Notes under the pieces: generated by a model
Databases searched by the model: none
The model's input: only the letters and a program-made list of their open reading frames with translations
What the model was told of the DNA's origin: nothing
IMG/VR virus record: IMGVR_UViG_3300021387_000688
DNA from: a virus
Taxonomy: Duplodnaviria; Caudoviricetes
Strand: one strand, 5' to 3'
Length of the DNA stretch: 64,000 nucleotides
Program-made: the position numbers and the translations under genes
In this document: positions 1,434-61,788 of the stretch, piece after piece
Numbering within the stretch: position 1 is the stretch's first letter
How the letters are laid out: the number at the start of each line of letters is the position of its first letter

Positions 1434-1438
1434 CAAAG

Positions 1439-1472
1439 TTGCAAAATCCAGAACAACATCTATAATGATATT
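1439..1472 (+). promoter_or_regulatory. Sigma70-like promoter, predicted leaderless
   Basis: TTGCAA (1439-1444), 16 nt, TATAAT (1461-1466), 6 nt, ATG 1473. Confidence 0.6.
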
Positions 1473-3527
1473 ATGAACTTTAGATTAGACAGCTTGGAAC
1501 TCTATGACTTTATGGGTTTCAAAGAGAAGAGGATAGATTTCTCCAAGTTAACGTTGTTGGTTGGCGAGAACGGAACTGGAAAGTCTGCTATCTTGGAAGC
1601 CTTAGCTCTTTCATTCCAGATCAAAGAAAGAGGAAATGCGGTAAACAATTATATCAGGCAAGGATGTAAAAAAGCTACTGTTATTTTACATGCAACTTGG
1701 ATGGACAAACCTTTAGAGATTGAATCTGTATTTGCCGCAACCGGTAGAAAGATTACCCGTACATTAAAGTATGAAGGTAACGTTTACGAAAACATGATGG
1801 CCAACAATTTCTTGACAGAGTATTTTGATTCAAGAAACCTTACTATTTCTTTTGCATTACAAGGTAACGATAAATTCTTATCTGCATCTAAAATGCAAAA
1901 CCTTAAAAACCTCACAGACCTTTTACAGATTGATTTTAATGATGAAGTAGAACTTGTAAAAGCAAGACTTAGAACAGTTACAACTGATAAAGATGAAGCT
2001 TTGACTAAGCTCCATAAACATACCGGTGCAAAATCCGCAGTAGAAGAATCTATTAAAGATTGTATAAGTAAGATTGAATATAACGAAAGGCAACTTACAC
2101 AATACCAAGAAGTAGAAGATTACTCAGTTGTAGAAAATGAAGTTTTGAAATTAAAATCAGAACTTAATGAACTTCTTAAAGCAAAAGACGAAGTTTCTAA
2201 AAAGCAAATAAAATACAAAGAATGTAACGATATATTGCTTAAGGATAGAAACACTTTACAGTCTTATAAAACTCAATTGGATAATTTACCGCAATTGGGA
2301 GAAGTTCAAGATGTAAATCCTTGGAAAGAAAAAGTAGCTTCCCAATCAAAGAATTTGGATGAAAGTAGAATTGCTTACAATCAAATGATTGGCAGTCAAA
2401 GCGAATTAAAAGCAAATATCAAATCTGAAAAAGAAAGATTAGATAAGATTGCAAACGGACTTTGCCCTACTTGTCATCAGCCAGTAGAGGCTCATATACT
2501 TGAAGCATCGGACCATACTATTCAAGAATTCCAAACCAAGTTGGCAGAGATTGAAAAGAGTATGGAAAATCAAACTGCCACTATTTCTCAAATCAAAACT
2601 GAAATAGAATCTCTTACAAAGCAAATCAGTTCTACAGAATTAAACAACAATAACATTTCTCATAACGCTCAGGTTAAGAAGATGTTGGAAGACTCTATAA
2701 ACAATTTGAATAAGAAAATTGTAGAAGAAGAGCAGCGCAAAAACGAATTGGAACAAGAATTGGGTACATTCTCCGAAGATGAAAAAGTAACTCAGTTGAG
2801 GGAATCTATTGCAAAGAAAGAAGAATTTGTAAGAGAAGCTAAAAAGAAAATTGAAGTAAAGGCCCAATGCAAAGCTAATATTCAAAGTTATAAAAACGTT
2901 TTGGATAATTTGCAAATGCAGAAAACTGAAAGCGAACAGCAGATTGAACTTTGCGAATTGGCCATCAGTAAAGATGAAAAAGAGATTGCAAAATTAAATC
3001 GTAAACAAGATATCTTTACATGTTTACCTAAAATCCATTTACAGGAAGTATTGAGTGGCATTCAATTTGTCATGAATGAATTGGTATCTCATTTCGGATT
3101 TAAGGGTCTTAGAATTGAATGTGATGACAAGGGTATAGATTTCTATTTGGTTAAGTGGTCTAAAAAAGATGATGGCACTCATTATGAAATTCCTTACTTC
3201 ATGTGTTCCGCTTTCCAGAAGAACCTTATCAACATTTCATTAATCGTTGCAATGAGTAAATTCTTTGACTTGCCATTTATTTGTGCAGATGAGATTGATA
3301 GTAGTGCATCTGTATCTAGTGAAAGAAAGTTAGGTATTGTAATCTCAGAAGCATTGAACAGTTGCCCTATGGTAACAATTTCTCACTCGGAGGGGTTGGT
3401 GACTGAATTGATTCAAAAAGGGCAAGACGTTTCTATAGTTAAATTAACAGAAGTTTTAGGAGATAGTATGCATGCACCTGATAATGAGAATTTAGAGGAG
3501 GAAGATCTTGAAGAATCTTTTGAATAA
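1473..3527 (+). CDS. SbcC/Rad50 (T4 gp46-like) recombination ATPase
   Basis: Walker A GENGTGKS, long coiled coil with CPTC zinc hook, degenerate signature CSAFQK, Walker B ICADEID, H-loop TISH. Confidence 0.92.
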   Translation: MNFRLDSLELYDFMGFKEKRIDFSKLTLLVGENGTGKSAILEALALSFQIKERGNAVNNYIRQGCKKATVILHATWMDKPLEIESVFAATGRKITRTLKYEGNVYENMMANNFLTEYFDSRNLTISFALQGNDKFLSASKMQNLKNLTDLLQIDFNDEVELVKARLRTVTTDKDEALTKLHKHTGAKSAVEESIKDCISKIEYNERQLTQYQEVEDYSVVENEVLKLKSELNELLKAKDEVSKKQIKYKECNDILLKDRNTLQSYKTQLDNLPQLGEVQDVNPWKEKVASQSKNLDESRIAYNQMIGSQSELKANIKSEKERLDKIANGLCPTCHQPVEAHILEASDHTIQEFQTKLAEIEKSMENQTATISQIKTEIESLTKQISSTELNNNNISHNAQVKKMLEDSINNLNKKIVEEEQRKNELEQELGTFSEDEKVTQLRESIAKKEEFVREAKKKIEVKAQCKANIQSYKNVLDNLQMQKTESEQQIELCELAISKDEKEIAKLNRKQDIFTCLPKIHLQEVLSGIQFVMNELVSHFGFKGLRIECDDKGIDFYLVKWSKKDDGTHYEIPYFMCSAFQKNLINISLIVAMSKFFDLPFICADEIDSSASVSSERKLGIVISEALNSCPMVTISHSEGLVTELIQKGQDVSIVKLTEVLGDSMHAPDNENLEEEDLEESFE

Positions 3528-3804
3528 AATATCAGATTTAAGCAGAACTTCCTTGCAGGATGTTAAGAAGTTCTTAAACATATGTAGACTCACAACATTA
3601 ATGGGCTACATAGAGAATTTGGATGAAGAGGGGAACTCTTTTATTGAGATTCCTTCTTTCGGGAAAATAAAGGTTTCAAGTGAAATGGATTTTGAGTTTA
3701 TTCCTACTACAGAATTGAAGAAGGAAGTATTCTCAATTAAACAGAATCCTAATACATTCTTGAAAAATGAATTGAGAAAAGTATTTCAGATAGAGGATAA
3801 GTAA
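3508..3804 (+). CDS. Hypothetical protein (weak HU/IHF-like resemblance)
   Basis: IEIPSFGKIKV resembles the HU beta-arm root; 98 aa. Confidence 0.5.
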   Translation: MKNLLNKISDLSRTSLQDVKKFLNICRLTTLMGYIENLDEEGNSFIEIPSFGKIKVSSEMDFEFIPTTELKKEVFSIKQNPNTFLKNELRKVFQIEDK

Positions 3805-3806
3805 GT

Positions 3807-5465
3807 ATGAACAAAGTTATGGATTGGCACGGTACTGAAGTACGTAAACAGATTTTAACAGGATATGAAATCTTGTATAAAATGGTAAGTGTTACGTTAG
3901 GACCTAACGGCCGCAATGTAATTATTGATGATGGAGGAGTTAGACCTCTTATTACAAAGGATGGGGTTACGGTAGCAAATCATGTAGACTCAAATGAACC
4001 TTTGTACAAGATTGGTATTTCTCTTGGAAAGGAAATTGCAGATAAGGTAGATGCAACCGCAGGTGATGGTACAACAACGTCTACAATTATCGGTTTCAAT
4101 TTGATGAAGTCCTTAAACAGTTTAGTGGACTTAGGATTGGATGTTAATGATATCCGTTCAGGTTTGAATAGAGCCATTCAGGACTCTGTTGATTTGTTAG
4201 TTAAGTTGTCTAAACCAATGCCAGATGTTAGAACAATTGCAGCAGTTGCATCTAACGGCAATGAAGAAATCATGGACTTATGTGAAGAAGCATATAGTTC
4301 TATTGGAGAAAACGGATCAGTTGTTTTAGCAGATTCTTATAGCAAAACTGGTAAATCATATGTAGAGGTTTCAAAAGGTATTAGATGGGAAGGTGGTATT
4401 CCTAGTGATTTGTTTGTAACAGATCCAATTTCAAATACAACAACTGTATCAGATCCTTACGTATTAGTTTTCGCTTCTGGTGTAGCTAAACTTGATGAAC
4501 TTACACCTTATATAGAAATTGCAAAGAACAATAACAGACCGCTTGTATTGATTGCTCCTTATTTTGAGCCAGAACTTTTCTCTCAAGCTTCTAGTAAGGG
4601 AGTATTGCTCCTTTCTTCTCCAGGAACATCTTTCAGCCACGTAGACTTGCATGAAGCATTAATGGATTTGGCGATTACATTAGGAACAAAAGTTATTCCA
4701 GATACTGCATCTGCACTTAACGTAATTGAAGATATTAAGGACGCAGGAAAAGCAGCTTTGATTACAGCTTCAATTGAAGAGACAAAAGTAACTCAGTACG
4801 AAGAACTTGAACCAGAACATGCAAAGATGTATAAAGAATACATTGATAAACTTAAGGCACAGATTGACGATGACGATGCACTTTCTATTAGCCGTACAGA
4901 ACAGTTGAAAGACAGATTGGCTAGATTGAGTGGAGGTATTGCAACAATTCATGTTGGTGCTTTAACACCTACCGAAAAAGAAGAAAAAGTAGCATTGATT
5001 GTAGATGCTCAACACTCTATTAGATCTGCAATGAAGTATGGTGTATTGCCAGGCGGTGGTACAGCATTGTTAAAAGTTTCGCAGACACTTTCAGATGATA
5101 TTTCAAATAAAACATTTAAATCAGAATCTGAAAAACGTGCATATAAAGCAGTACTTGATGTAATGAGAGTACCAGCTAAGATGCTTGTAGCTTCTCTTAA
5201 GCCAGAAGATTATCAGTATATTGTACAGCAAGTTGCTCATGAAAAGAACTTTACTACAGGTTACAATGTACGCACAGGTGAAGTAGAAGATTTGTTCAAA
5301 TCTGGTATTGTAGATTCAGCCGCAATTGAAATTAATGCTTTGAAGTATTCTAATTCGGTAATTGGATCATTCATCTTATCTAATGGTGTTATCTATAATG
5401 GAGATAGAAATATGAGCTACGATATGAACGATCGTAGAGCAGCGGAGGCAGGTTATGGCAGATAA
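3807..5465 (+). CDS. groEL: Phage-encoded GroEL-like chaperonin
   Basis: TLGPNGRNV, ITKDGVTVA, GDGTTT, RLARLSGGIA, GVLPGGG, GIVD motifs; 552 aa. Confidence 0.95.
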   Translation: MNKVMDWHGTEVRKQILTGYEILYKMVSVTLGPNGRNVIIDDGGVRPLITKDGVTVANHVDSNEPLYKIGISLGKEIADKVDATAGDGTTTSTIIGFNLMKSLNSLVDLGLDVNDIRSGLNRAIQDSVDLLVKLSKPMPDVRTIAAVASNGNEEIMDLCEEAYSSIGENGSVVLADSYSKTGKSYVEVSKGIRWEGGIPSDLFVTDPISNTTTVSDPYVLVFASGVAKLDELTPYIEIAKNNNRPLVLIAPYFEPELFSQASSKGVLLLSSPGTSFSHVDLHEALMDLAITLGTKVIPDTASALNVIEDIKDAGKAALITASIEETKVTQYEELEPEHAKMYKEYIDKLKAQIDDDDALSISRTEQLKDRLARLSGGIATIHVGALTPTEKEEKVALIVDAQHSIRSAMKYGVLPGGGTALLKVSQTLSDDISNKTFKSESEKRAYKAVLDVMRVPAKMLVASLKPEDYQYIVQQVAHEKNFTTGYNVRTGEVEDLFKSGIVDSAAIEINALKYSNSVIGSFILSNGVIYNGDRNMSYDMNDRRAAEAGYGR

Positions 5466-59435: not shown

Positions 59436-60194
59436 TTAAGAATTTCTATCTTTTTTCACCAACTCATCCAAGTCAAATACTTTATAAGGGGAGTCGGGAT
59501 TGTCCCAGCAAATATTTTTATACATTTTAGGATCGACTACAAATTGTTCCCAATTCTTTTTGTGCTGTAAAGGTGGAACTTCCCTTCCAGAATCTTTGTA
59601 GGCTTTTCTTACCATTCTGTAATTTTCCAAATCCCAAGTAAAGTAAGATTCGTCAACGGGAATTTGATGGGTATGGCCATGGATGTTTATGAATTGAGAA
59701 TTCTTTTTTAAGAAAACAGGTTCGTGACTTAAGATAAAACTATCCTTGTAAAGAATTGGTCTATCATAAACTTTATCAAAACCAAGATATCTAAAAATAT
59801 CTTCCAAAGAAGAATTCTTGTCAAAAGGTTCAATTTTATCCCAATCCTCTTTCGATTTTCTAAAATGATTGAATTGACGATCATGGTTTCCAAGAACAAT
59901 ATTCAACTGACGGTAATTACCCTTCATTACATCAATGAAAGCTTTCAACTGATCGAGAGTACATTCTCCAAATAATTTACCGTAAAATAAATCCCCAAGA
60001 TTCCAAAGTATTACTCCTTTCTCATCTGGAATTTGCTTGTTAATTGAGTTTACAATATCCCAAGACATTTGTATAGATTTTTCATCATTAAAGGGGAGAT
60101 AATCTTTTCGTTCTGCGTATTTTATAATATTGCTATGAAGTAAGTGACTTACTTAATGTAAGTCAGAAGTAATATAATTTCTTTCTGACTGCAT
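59436..60194 (-). CDS. Calcineurin-like metallophosphoesterase interrupted by a 12-nt stop-containing insert
   Basis: GGAGG RBS, ATG 60194: MQSERNYITSDLH-TAA-VSH-LLHSNIIKY... in frame with NLGDLF, LGNHD, SHEP, IHGHTH. The track ORF (59436..60068) lacks motif I. Confidence 0.85.
60144..60165 (-). other. Candidate recoding element (coding gap hairpin)
   Basis: Minus strand TGACTTAC-ATTAA-GTAAGTCA, 8-bp stem; CAT (His), TAA, GTA, AGT, CAC (His). Confidence 0.6.
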
Positions 60195-60281
60195 TTTTAT
60201 GTCCTCCTAAAATAATTAGCATAATTATATTATAGTATTTGATTATGTTAGTGTGTAACAAATGTTTGCACTAATTAAAGT

Positions 60282-61300
60282 ATGAATTACGAAAAAAATT
60301 ATTATGATTATGTAAATTATGTAAAAAACACCATGTTAAGCCTAGAAGTTTAGGAGGAGACAACTCTAAAGAAAATTTGATTTTACTTACAGCAAGAGAA
60401 CATTTTCTAGCACATTATTTACTTTGTAAATTTACAAAAGGAGAAGATAAAAAGAAAATGGTTTGGGCTTTCCATAGACTATGTTATTCGGATTCTTCTA
60501 ACCATATTAGAAAAGAAAATAATTTCAAAATGAGTAGTAAATTTTATGAATATTTAAGAAAAGAATTTGTTAAAATTTTTGAAAGTGAAGATTGGAAAAA
60601 AGCATGTAGTGAACGTAGTAAAGACAGGGTTTGGATAAACGACGGTAAAAACTCTAAAATGGTTAAGGATTTTGAATTAGATGATTTCTTAAAGGATGGC
60701 TGGACAGTCGGAAGAATTATGAATAAATCCAATTTAGGAAAGTATACACCTACAGAGGAGGAGAAAAAAAGAAAAGCATTAAAATTATCCATTAGAGGGA
60801 AAAACTCTGTTTGGGTCCACAATGATTTAGAAGACAGAATGATTCAAAAAGATCAATTAAAAGAATTTTTAGATAAAGGGTATTCAGAAGGTAGAACCCA
60901 TAAAAAGAAAGCATCTTCCAACGGTCAAATTGGTAAAATAGCTGTTTACAATCCTTTAACTGATGAGGAAAGGAGGATAGATAAGAAAGATTTAGAGATC
61001 TTTTTAAGTAAAGGTTTCATTAAGGGTAGAAGAAAAGCCAGTGAAGAAACTAAACAAAAAATGAGTAAGTCCCATACAGATCCGGATAGTAAATCCCAAA
61101 AATATTATCAAAGCCTTAGAAATGGTATTTCTAAAAGAAAACATTTCGAAGGTAAAATTGTACATAAAGATGGTATTTATAAAGGGGTTTCTTTGGAAGA
61201 GTTGGACACCTATTTATCTAAAGGGTGGCAAATAGGTGCCAGACCTAAATCAGAAGATTGGAAAAGAAAAGCCAGAGAAAGAAATCAAAAAAAGATTTAA
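60282..61300 (+). mobile_element. Free-standing HNH homing endonuclease gene with a -1 frameshift near the 5' end
   Basis: ACTAATT-N5-ATG MNYEKNYYDYVNYVK; the -1 frame gives HHVKPRSLGGDNSKENLILLTAREHFLAH; four W.ndG...L..G...GR repeats and a NUMOD3-like SEETKQKMSKSH. Confidence 0.85.
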
Positions 61301-61302
61301 AA

Positions 61303-61788
61303 TTATTTTGTAACCTCCTGATTAGGTGAATGAGTAACATCATCTTCAAACATTCCAAAATGATTTAAGAACTTCCACCTCTTTTTAATAGAGAATCCTC
61401 TTGTCAATTTGTATTTAAGGGCTGCCCGAGATAATCTTAAATTATTAATAATTTCTCCTGCTTTTTTATTATCCTCTTCTTTTTGAGGATCGAGCCCGGC
61501 TGTAAGTCTACCACATTCATTTGCATAATCTAAAACAACTGTTGCAAAATTAACAAACATTCTTTGAGTAGAATTTAAGAAAGGAGTGGTTGCAATATCA
61601 TTAGGTTCTACCTGCCAGTAACACTCTGTAAGCATTCCCAATAATGTTTCGTAAAGCTTACGGTCTTTCTTAAATAAAAATTTTGGCGGATTGTTAAACC
61701 AATTTGCTTTCAATTCCAGCATTCCCTTTTCAAGCAAATCCATGTATTGCTGTTCCAGCCAATTGTATACTACAACTTCGTACATCAT
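61303..61788 (-). CDS. Hypothetical protein
   Basis: Coupled ORF. Confidence 0.7.
   Translation of the reverse strand: MMYEVVVYNWLEQQYMDLLEKGMLELKANWFNNPPKFLFKKDRKLYETLLGMLTECYWQVEPNDIATTPFLNSTQRMFVNFATVVLDYANECGRLTAGLDPQKEEDNKKAGEIINNLRLSRAALKYKLTRGFSIKKRWKFLNHFGMFEDDVTHSPNQEVTK

Follow-up and report, generated by a model that had tools for sequence, protein, structure and literature searches.

A phosphoesterase gene interrupted in its first catalytic motif

We analysed a stretch of 64,000 nucleotides (nt) from a virus of the Caudoviricetes (Duplodnaviria; IMG/VR record IMGVR_UViG_3300021387_000688), which we call the window. Towards its end the window carries two divergent genes. One, on the minus strand, encodes a metallophosphoesterase and is interrupted within its first catalytic motif (motif I) by 12 nt that begin with a stop codon. 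The other, on the plus strand, is a free-standing HNH homing-endonuclease gene (Table 1). From the comparison with related loci we think it likely that ribosomes bypass this gap, i.e. that they leave the message at the codon before the stop and resume decoding beyond it, and that the gap was brought by the homing endonuclease.

The initial annotation of this DNA had read the minus strand as a GGAGG, an ATG at 60194, a take-off codon CAT, a 12-nt gap and a body in frame, and this reading is exact. It had also proposed that removing positions 60144-60155 restores motif I, and here too it was right. Taking these bases out gives ITSDLHLLHSNIIKY, with the spacing of about 50 homologues that read ...ITSDLHxxHxNIIKY... 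without them, and the downstream motifs are intact. The metallophosphoesterase motifs DxH, GD, GNH(D/E), H and GHxH are all present, DxH in the first coding piece, which encodes the Asp and His of motif I, and the others in the second. The second piece matches Pfam PF00149 (E = 4e-6, 27.8 bits for a cut-off of 21.5) and the phosphoesterase family phrog_547. The gene is the only one of its kind in the window, and no DNA or protein match to it was found among 50,697 deposited phage records. The only match in these records was a 78-nt HNH motif shared with T4-like homing endonucleases. The promoter-like stretch upstream of the phosphoesterase gene is conserved at three related loci (L001, L069 and L085).

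Table 1. Features at the phosphoesterase locus of the window, followed by the gaps found at the same site in related loci (locus and positions).
Feature	Position	Strand	Remarks
Second coding piece	59436..60143	-	235 codons and stop; begins TTA CTT CAT AGC; motifs GD, GNHD, SHEP, GHTH
Coding gap, TAA GTA AGT CAC	60144..60155	-	12 nt; stop 60155-60153; landing codon CAC 60146-60144
Hairpin	60145..60165	-	8 base pairs, by folding; arms TGACTTAC (60165-60158) and GTAAGTCA (60152-60145)
First coding piece, MQSERNYITSDLH	60156..60194	-	13 codons from ATG 60194; ends in take-off codon CAT (60158-60156)
Shine-Dalgarno GGAGG	60203..60207	-	8 nt 5' of the ATG; by sequence
Promoter-like hexamers, TACACA or CTAACA, and TATAAT	60224..60257	-	spacer 16-17 nt; consensus matches only; upstream of the phosphoesterase gene, within the cassette
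HNH homing-endonuclease gene	60282..61300	+	free-standing, divergent, phrog_655 type; 82% identity to the intact 353-amino-acid L001 protein
Mobile cassette	60138..61333	.	about 1.2 kb; replaces about 69 nt of L003-type sequence; by comparison with gapless L003
6-nt gap	L041 1092-1097		CTT, then TGA CTT
7-nt gap	L088 1020-1026		TCG, then TAGG TCA
8-nt gap	L072 2097-2104		CAT, then TAGGT CAC
11-nt gap	L004 2987-2997; L087 1924-1934		two distinct one-base losses from the 12-nt form
12-nt gap	seven distinct alleles, window included		CAT, then TAR GTA AGT CAY
12-nt gap	L001 1608-1619
12-nt gap	L018 / L019 2986-2997
12-nt gap	L068 2414-2425
12-nt gap	L069 2414-2425
12-nt gap	L085 1559-1570
12-nt gap	L086 342-353
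14-nt gap	L070 1933-1946; L071		CAC, then TGAGTGTAAGT CAT
36-nt gap	L026 2040-2075; L027 2959-2994		CAT to CAT
37-nt gap	L023 267-303		CAT to CAT
38-nt gap	L089 2460-2497		CAT to CAT

A gap of this kind might simply be an error of assembly or sequencing, and the initial annotation had raised this doubt itself. An artefact is conceivable a priori, and the insert was compared with assembled contigs rather than raw reads. But positions 60144-60155 are spanned without an indel by three Logan contigs, X1 from the source run, X3 from a second sample of the same study (about 97-99% identical) and X7 from an unrelated study of 2025 (about 91% identical). The 12-nt gap is also present in assemblies of six other data sets, and altogether no fewer than eight different samples or studies have yielded it in independent assemblies. 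The chance that it is an artefact is, we think, negligible.

Gaps of nine lengths at one site

We searched for other alleles upstream of those homologues that had been given a late protein start, and among tblastn matches in contigs of metagenomes and metagenome-assembled genomes (MAGs). The resulting set comprises 19 gap-bearing alleles, the window and 18 loci, with nine gap lengths from 6 to 38 nt. All 19 are built alike. A GGAG(G)-type ribosome-binding site (RBS) and an ATG open the short first frame, whose SDLH-type motif residues are kept. A stop codon, be it TAA, TAG or TGA, stands immediately 3' of the take-off codon, and the last codon of the gap is cognate to the take-off codon. The frame downstream is open and carries the GD, GNHD, HEP-type and GHxH motifs. 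The matched codons specify His in the gaps of 8, 11, 12, 14, 36, 37 and 38 nt (CAY to CAY), Leu in the 6-nt gap (CTT to CTT) and Ser in the 7-nt gap (TCG to TCA). In the long gaps the landing codon is the first His codon met within the gap. This grammar of stop and cognate landing codon recurs in at least three or four gap families that are apparently independent of each other. Comparison of the alleles also shows that the motif I site has been struck repeatedly, in many phage lineages.

The gap lengths bear on how these genes might be decoded. In nine of the 19 alleles the gap length is no multiple of three (7, 8, 37 and 38 nt once each, 14 nt twice and 11 nt three times), and the homologous family of 36, 37 and 38 nt covers all three frame relations. 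One might suppose that an amino acid is inserted at the in-frame TAA, by readthrough or suppression, which would place four extra residues (xVSH) in motif I. The 12-, 6- and 36-nt gaps are indeed multiples of three, and Asp-x-His is kept ahead of the insert. But gaps that are not multiples of three and precede open frames cannot be decoded by plain readthrough, and close derivatives of the gap, i.e. those of 11 nt (independent losses in L004 and L087), 8 nt and 14 nt, keep their downstream frames open. Among the homologues none has a stop-free insertion at this site of motif I. Besides, TAA is the main ordinary stop of the window, where it ends 70 of the 98 long frames, and no tRNA gene was found in the window, hence no suppressor there. 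We regard readthrough as very improbable.

Genes of this kind are truncated by gene callers. In 9 of the 87 database homologues with contigs checked, the called gene starts late, at an internal Met or at TTG. A tenth late start (P0021, locus L002) was rejected as a gap allele, as the gene is uninterrupted. Pattern scans of IMG/VR added no allele to the series. The pattern of the 12- or 11-nt gap gave one true match (L004, already in the set), the other 11 being chance matches in other frames, and the patterns of the 14-nt and 36-nt gaps gave no match.

Some loci deserve separate mention. In a distant homologue (L051, around 780-850) five extra bases, TGAGC, lie between the GGT of SDTHFG and HENIIKYC. 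They begin with a stop and include no cognate landing codon. They could stem from a 5-nt hop in which re-pairing is imperfect, from a frameshift mutation or from an error in this 1.3-kb contig. One of the 11-nt alleles has a chimeric body (L087, 1935-2582), which past GNHDKQ continues as the C-terminal half of a different metallophosphoesterase, open and with HGHTHG. About 1 kb upstream of one 36-nt allele lie putative genes for IS200/IS605-like TnpA and TnpB, identified by eye from their translations (L027, 267-2046).

A hairpin around the take-off codon

The 8-base-pair (bp) hairpin that the initial annotation had drawn over the take-off codon and the stop is present, with a folding energy of -9.2 kcal/mol and a z-score of -3.5 relative to mononucleotide shuffles, of which 1 in 200 folds as well. 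Its 5' arm reaches one base into the take-off codon and its 3' arm two bases into the landing codon, and the loop, ATTAA (60157-60153), is made of the remainder of CAT and the stop. Related hairpins are found in the alleles of 8, 11, 12, 14 and 36-38 nt. When the take-off codon lies in the 5' arm, z ranges from -2.7 to -4.3 in most alleles, among them those of 8, 12, 14 and 36-37 nt, and is about -2.0 in L027 and L089. The details vary with the form. In the 8-nt form the upstream Leu codon is CTT, not TTA, and the 3' arm matches it (TGACCT/AGGTCA). The 14-nt form has a 9-bp stem in which the entire take-off codon is paired and UGA is the loop. The 36-38-nt forms have a 12-bp stem with CAU and UGA inside the 5' arm, which is reportedly their placement in T4 gene 60 as well. 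At the corresponding site of the gapless locus L003 no structure was found (z = 0). The 6-nt allele (CTT TGA CTT) has a longer-range fold (L041, 1070-1125), with an outer stem of 7 bp (TCAGATC/GATCTGA), an inner stem of 5 bp and z = -4.0.

A hairpin spanning the site might also mean that the 12 nt are removed before translation, either by a micro-intron or some RNA processing that the hairpin guides, or by slippage between short repeats, in the DNA or in transcription. In the window the insert can in addition pair with the downstream flank. We examined this alternative pairing and rejected it, as it is not conserved in L001, L018 and L069. Apart from one chance-level hit elsewhere in the gene, there was no match to an Rfam family. 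At 6-14 nt the gaps are much smaller than introns are known to be, the families do not share a conserved gap sequence, and splicing requires neither a stop codon nor matching codons at its flanks. The gap is present in all DNA contigs. Excision or slippage before translation thus appears quite unlikely.

A mobile cassette and its nucleases

The gapless locus L003 has neither the gap nor the HNH gene, and there the upstream gene abuts the start of the phosphoesterase gene. Along the phosphoesterase gene the window and L003 share 96-100% of their bases, beginning about 9 nt past the gap and continuing almost to the 3' end. In the other direction the match to L003 breaks off at 61333, within the last nine codons of the upstream gene of 161 amino acids. 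Between these limits lies a cassette with a new 3' end for that upstream gene, the HNH gene, a promoter and RBS, 13 codons, the gap and two further codons. Its right end is about 6 nt past the landing codon. From the ATG to the stop codon of the gap the window tracks the distant L001, at 93-96% identity over spans of 51-60 nt, and the bodies of the two proteins are 72% identical. Among the seven 12-nt alleles the patch from ATG to landing codon has a mean identity of 92%, for 70% in the bodies. L085 has no HNH gene. Its patch, which starts some 45 nt 5' of the ATG and reaches 8 nt past the gap, is 100% identical to that of the window, and its body is only 67% identical. L086 carries the 12-nt patch within a clade otherwise carrying gaps of 36-38 nt, and X7 keeps the gap while skipping 60218-61315. 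Hence the cassette is found in the window and X3, and the gap patch without the full cassette in X7, L085, L086 and L018. These comparisons show the cassette to be mobile and mosaic.

The HNH gene starts at ATG 60282, leaving a spacer of 87 nt to the ATG of the phosphoesterase gene. Its family, phrog_655, is a broad phage family and was assigned on the copy of L001. In the window the gene is broken at an A-run (60323-60328) by a 40-nt deletion between short A-runs. It lacks residues 16-28 of the L001 protein, i.e. 13 codons just before the HH motif, and one more base. As a consequence, the frame opened by the ATG stops at TAG 60351-60353, and the HNH frame runs on in -1 to 61300. The missing letters (36+4) are present in frame in X3, a near-identical phage with an intact HNH gene. 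The deletion junction reads A AAA AAC, a classic -1 slippery heptamer. We rejected a rescue by programmed -1 frameshifting, because the deletion also removes 13 residues and the sister sample has the intact gene. With its HNH copy inactivated, the cassette of the window is probably no longer mobile by itself. The initial annotation had thus rightly written of a "repaired" HNH. Its larger claim, a hop element linked to the HNH gene, is supported by the comparison of alleles, with the one correction that the HNH copy of the window itself is inactivated.

It had further asked whether insert and HNH co-occur, and the outcome agrees with such a link. A nuclease gene lies within 1.5 kb of 6 of the 16 distinct gap-bearing loci and of none of the 38 gapless ones (Fisher p = 3e-4), for seven query proteins; nucleases of other families near gapless loci would be missed by these. 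The upstream HNH family is that of the window, L001, L069 and L041. A second, different HNH family is found directly downstream in L001 (2487-3455), L068 (3253-4218), L069 (3270-4228, matched in two pieces and perhaps split) and L023 (1149-1934). L068 also has a NUMOD3 gene with a GIY-YIG-like motif, recognised by eye.

Constraint on the gap and on the gene body

Among the seven 12-nt alleles, the only variable positions of the gap are TAA to TAG and CAC to CAT, which keep the stop and the identity of His. Within the 36-38-nt family both substitutions and indels separate the gaps, the difference being about 8% between L027 and L089 and about 20% between L026 and L027 (hand counts). The ratio of non-synonymous to synonymous divergence (dN/dS) among alleles with diverged gaps is 0.09-0.25, at dS of 0.24-0.76. 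Among the coding differences listed between the window and X3, 20 of 23 fall at third codon positions (hand count). Second lesions were found in 0 of 19 gap-bearing alleles; the accumulation of such lesions in insert-bearing relatives, which the initial annotation had held against its own proposal, is therefore not what these alleles show. Yet dN/dS alone is no proof of selection after the insertion, because a gapless allele nests among gap-bearing ones.

These data have to be weighed against the possibility that the gap is an immunity scar in a null allele, with the phosphoesterase dispensable and off and the bodies kept intact by repeated copying during homing. Homing elements can spread at a cost. 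The patch is far more conserved than the bodies, the body of the window is nearly that of its gapless relative, and many insertions may be young, as the nesting of gapless alleles allows. Metatranscriptome runs of the same samples, among them X21 from the source sample, gave no contig with the sequence, a result that is uninformative either way. But a null allele gives no reason for a stop right after the take-off codon and a cognate codon at the end of the gap in three or four apparently independent families, nor does it explain why variation within the 12-nt gap spares the stop and His. The RBS, ATG and SDLH of the short first frame would have little cause to persist in 19 of 19 alleles. Nor is the lack of a second lesion expected when the gaps of 36-38 nt have diverged by 8-20% while the bodies evolved at a dN/dS near 0.1. 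We judge a null allele unlikely.

Probable bypass of the gap

We favour the view that the gap in motif I is carried by homing endonucleases and bypassed in translation, and we hold it as probable on the evidence of sequence comparison. A cassette with the HNH gene, a promoter, a replacement 5' end and the 12-nt gap would have been copied into motif I of the metallophosphoesterase gene. The gap would split the DNA sequence that the nuclease family recognises in gapless alleles, and carriers would thus be immune to cutting. During translation peptidyl-tRNA-His would sit on CAU in the P (peptidyl) site, with UAA in the A (aminoacyl) site. The tRNA would release the message, about 12 nt would slide through and the same tRNA would re-pair with CAC. 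Decoding would resume at UUA to give ...SDLH-LLHSNIIKY... and a full-length enzyme of 248 amino acids. The peptide at the junction would be NYITSDLHLLHSNIIK, to which readthrough would add four residues. The hairpin probably helps to detach the codon from the anticodon or shields the stop from the release factor, as proposed for T4 gene 60. Alternatively, the stem may be a relic of how the insert arose, by fold-back repair of a nuclease break. Bypass may be of low efficiency. Re-pairing of the P-site tRNA would explain all at once the stop, the cognate codons and the independence of frame. The initial annotation had taken the gap for an independent, very short hop akin to that of T4 gene 60, and the recurrence of take-off codon, stop and landing codon, including at lengths that shift the frame, speaks in its favour.

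Several points count against this view. Only 10-17 codons precede the take-off codon across alleles, so that a nascent-peptide signal in the exit tunnel, like that of gene 60, is unlikely. Inspection of the short gaps showed no clear Shine-Dalgarno-like element (GAG or GGAGG). Measurements in Escherichia coli reportedly give low efficiencies for unaided hops. The fold is weak in L004 (z = 0.1) and L088 (z = -1.05), the inverted repeat could have arisen as a side effect of fold-back repair, and in short gaps both arms of the hairpin would sit within the ribosome at take-off, where the action of a stem is hard to explain. No nuclease gene lies nearby in 10 of the 16 gap-bearing loci. The gapless L024 nests among the 36-38-nt alleles, and some divergence may therefore predate each insertion. 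Finally, the patch spreads by recombination into working genes, so intact bodies and low dN/dS could partly be due to recent conversion.

A broader claim is that phage homing endonucleases repeatedly create and spread minimal stop-hop sites of 6-38 nt in catalytic motifs, made of hardly more than a stop, a cognate landing codon and a hairpin that sequesters the take-off codon, and lacking a nascent-peptide signal. On this we are evenly divided. If it were true, bypassing would be a common and evolvable way for phage genes to survive the disruption of targets by nucleases, not a curiosity of T4. The nine gap lengths at one site would then amount to a natural mutagenesis set for the minimal rules of bypass. 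The allelic series varies gap length, stop, landing codon and stem, and offers a much simpler system for dissecting take-off, sliding and landing.

Genomic context of the window and its relatives

The window is AT-rich (34% GC), uses the standard code and has tightly packed genes, and the listed frames of gene size all close at standard stops. It appears to be a piece of a large gut phage, of rumen type, sampled from an animal. Besides the locus described above, it includes genes for an SbcC-like ATPase (phrog_77) and a GroEL-like chaperonin (phrog_5725, E = 6e-102) at 1434-5465. Most of its other large frames had no PHROG match.

Some relatives have a gene for a spirochaete-type FlaA sheath protein and a flagellin gene. 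Many homologous contigs are binned to MAGs of rumen Treponema or Spirochaetaceae, and others to Bacteroidales, which gives a lead towards rumen spirochaetes as hosts. These observations concern L085 538-1422, L002 3339-4205, and loci L089 and L096-L109. In L003 a scaffold gap, i.e. a run of N at 3829-3919, is flanked on both sides by the same 55-nt sequence and looks like an unmerged overlap.

Comparison with known bypass systems

In full-text searches of the literature, bypassing in phages appeared only in gene 60 and its homologues, all topoisomerases, and in the terminase of phiHau3, and no paper linked bypassing to a phosphoesterase. A parallel to the hop itself comes from E. coli reporters, in which Weiss et al. 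(1987) and later workers reportedly saw short hops over stops, at synthetic or adventitious sites and with low efficiency. There too the peptidyl-tRNA re-pairs with a cognate codon a few bases past the stop, whatever the frame, and the CTT TGA CTT of L041 has exactly this form. The sites described here, by contrast, occur naturally and recur within a conserved catalytic motif; they are tied to a mobile element, and most have a hairpin.

The 'byp' elements of Magnusiomyces mitochondria are said to be mobile coding inserts of 27-55 nt that require no nascent-peptide signal (Lang et al. 2014). Like the present gaps, they are short and numerous, have a landing codon that matches the take-off codon, place a codon that cannot be decoded in the A site and include a hairpin. 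However, they are mitochondrial, resemble GC clusters and have no homing-endonuclease gene, whereas the gaps described here are as short as 6 nt.

In the terminase gene of Streptomyces phage phiHau3, bypassing is backed by a junction peptide seen in mass spectrometry, and the RNA folds so that the landing codon comes close to the site of take-off (RNA Biol 2023, PMC10732093). This is a natural phage gene decoded by bypassing, as we propose for the phosphoesterase from sequence relationships. Yet the gene is another one and its trigger is a rare, regulatory UUA codon, not a stop; the text of that paper has no mention of HNH or homing (PMC10732093).

The arrangement as a whole is best compared with T4 gene 60. 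In the MobA/gene 60 element an HNH gene is followed by a replaced homologous stretch, and this by the bypass. The insert extends to the landing codon or barely beyond it, and "hit and run" alleles with only the gap, as well as replacement of the nuclease, have been described (Manning & Atkins, bioRxiv 10.1101/2022.08.31.505936). The same traits are found at the phosphoesterase locus. Take-off and landing codons are matched, a stop would occupy the A site at take-off, and both this stop and the take-off codon lie in a stem-loop. The element measures about 1.1-1.2 kb and combines the gap, a replacement for the adjacent coding stretch and a free-standing HNH gene. There are near-identical genomes with and without the element, alleles with only the gap, and loci in which a GIY-YIG-type nuclease replaces the HNH. 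The differences are as clear. The host gene is a metallophosphoesterase struck in motif I, whereas gene 60 is a topoisomerase struck in its Toprim domain. The gap sequences lack homology, and the gaps have 6-38 nt (12 in the window) instead of 50, or the 20 of the shortest published homologue. Take-off follows only 10-17 codons, which would leave no room for the nascent-peptide signal of gene 60, and no internal Shine-Dalgarno is evident. The short forms have the 5' arm of their hairpin upstream of the take-off codon, not downstream. The nuclease gene is located outside the phosphoesterase gene and does not split it in two. Given the different host gene (PF00149), the unrelated gap and an HNH of a broad family, the phosphoesterase system is an analogue of gene 60/MobA and not a member of it. 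If it is indeed a bypass brought independently by a nuclease into another gene, the arrangement of gene 60 would be a general evolutionary solution.

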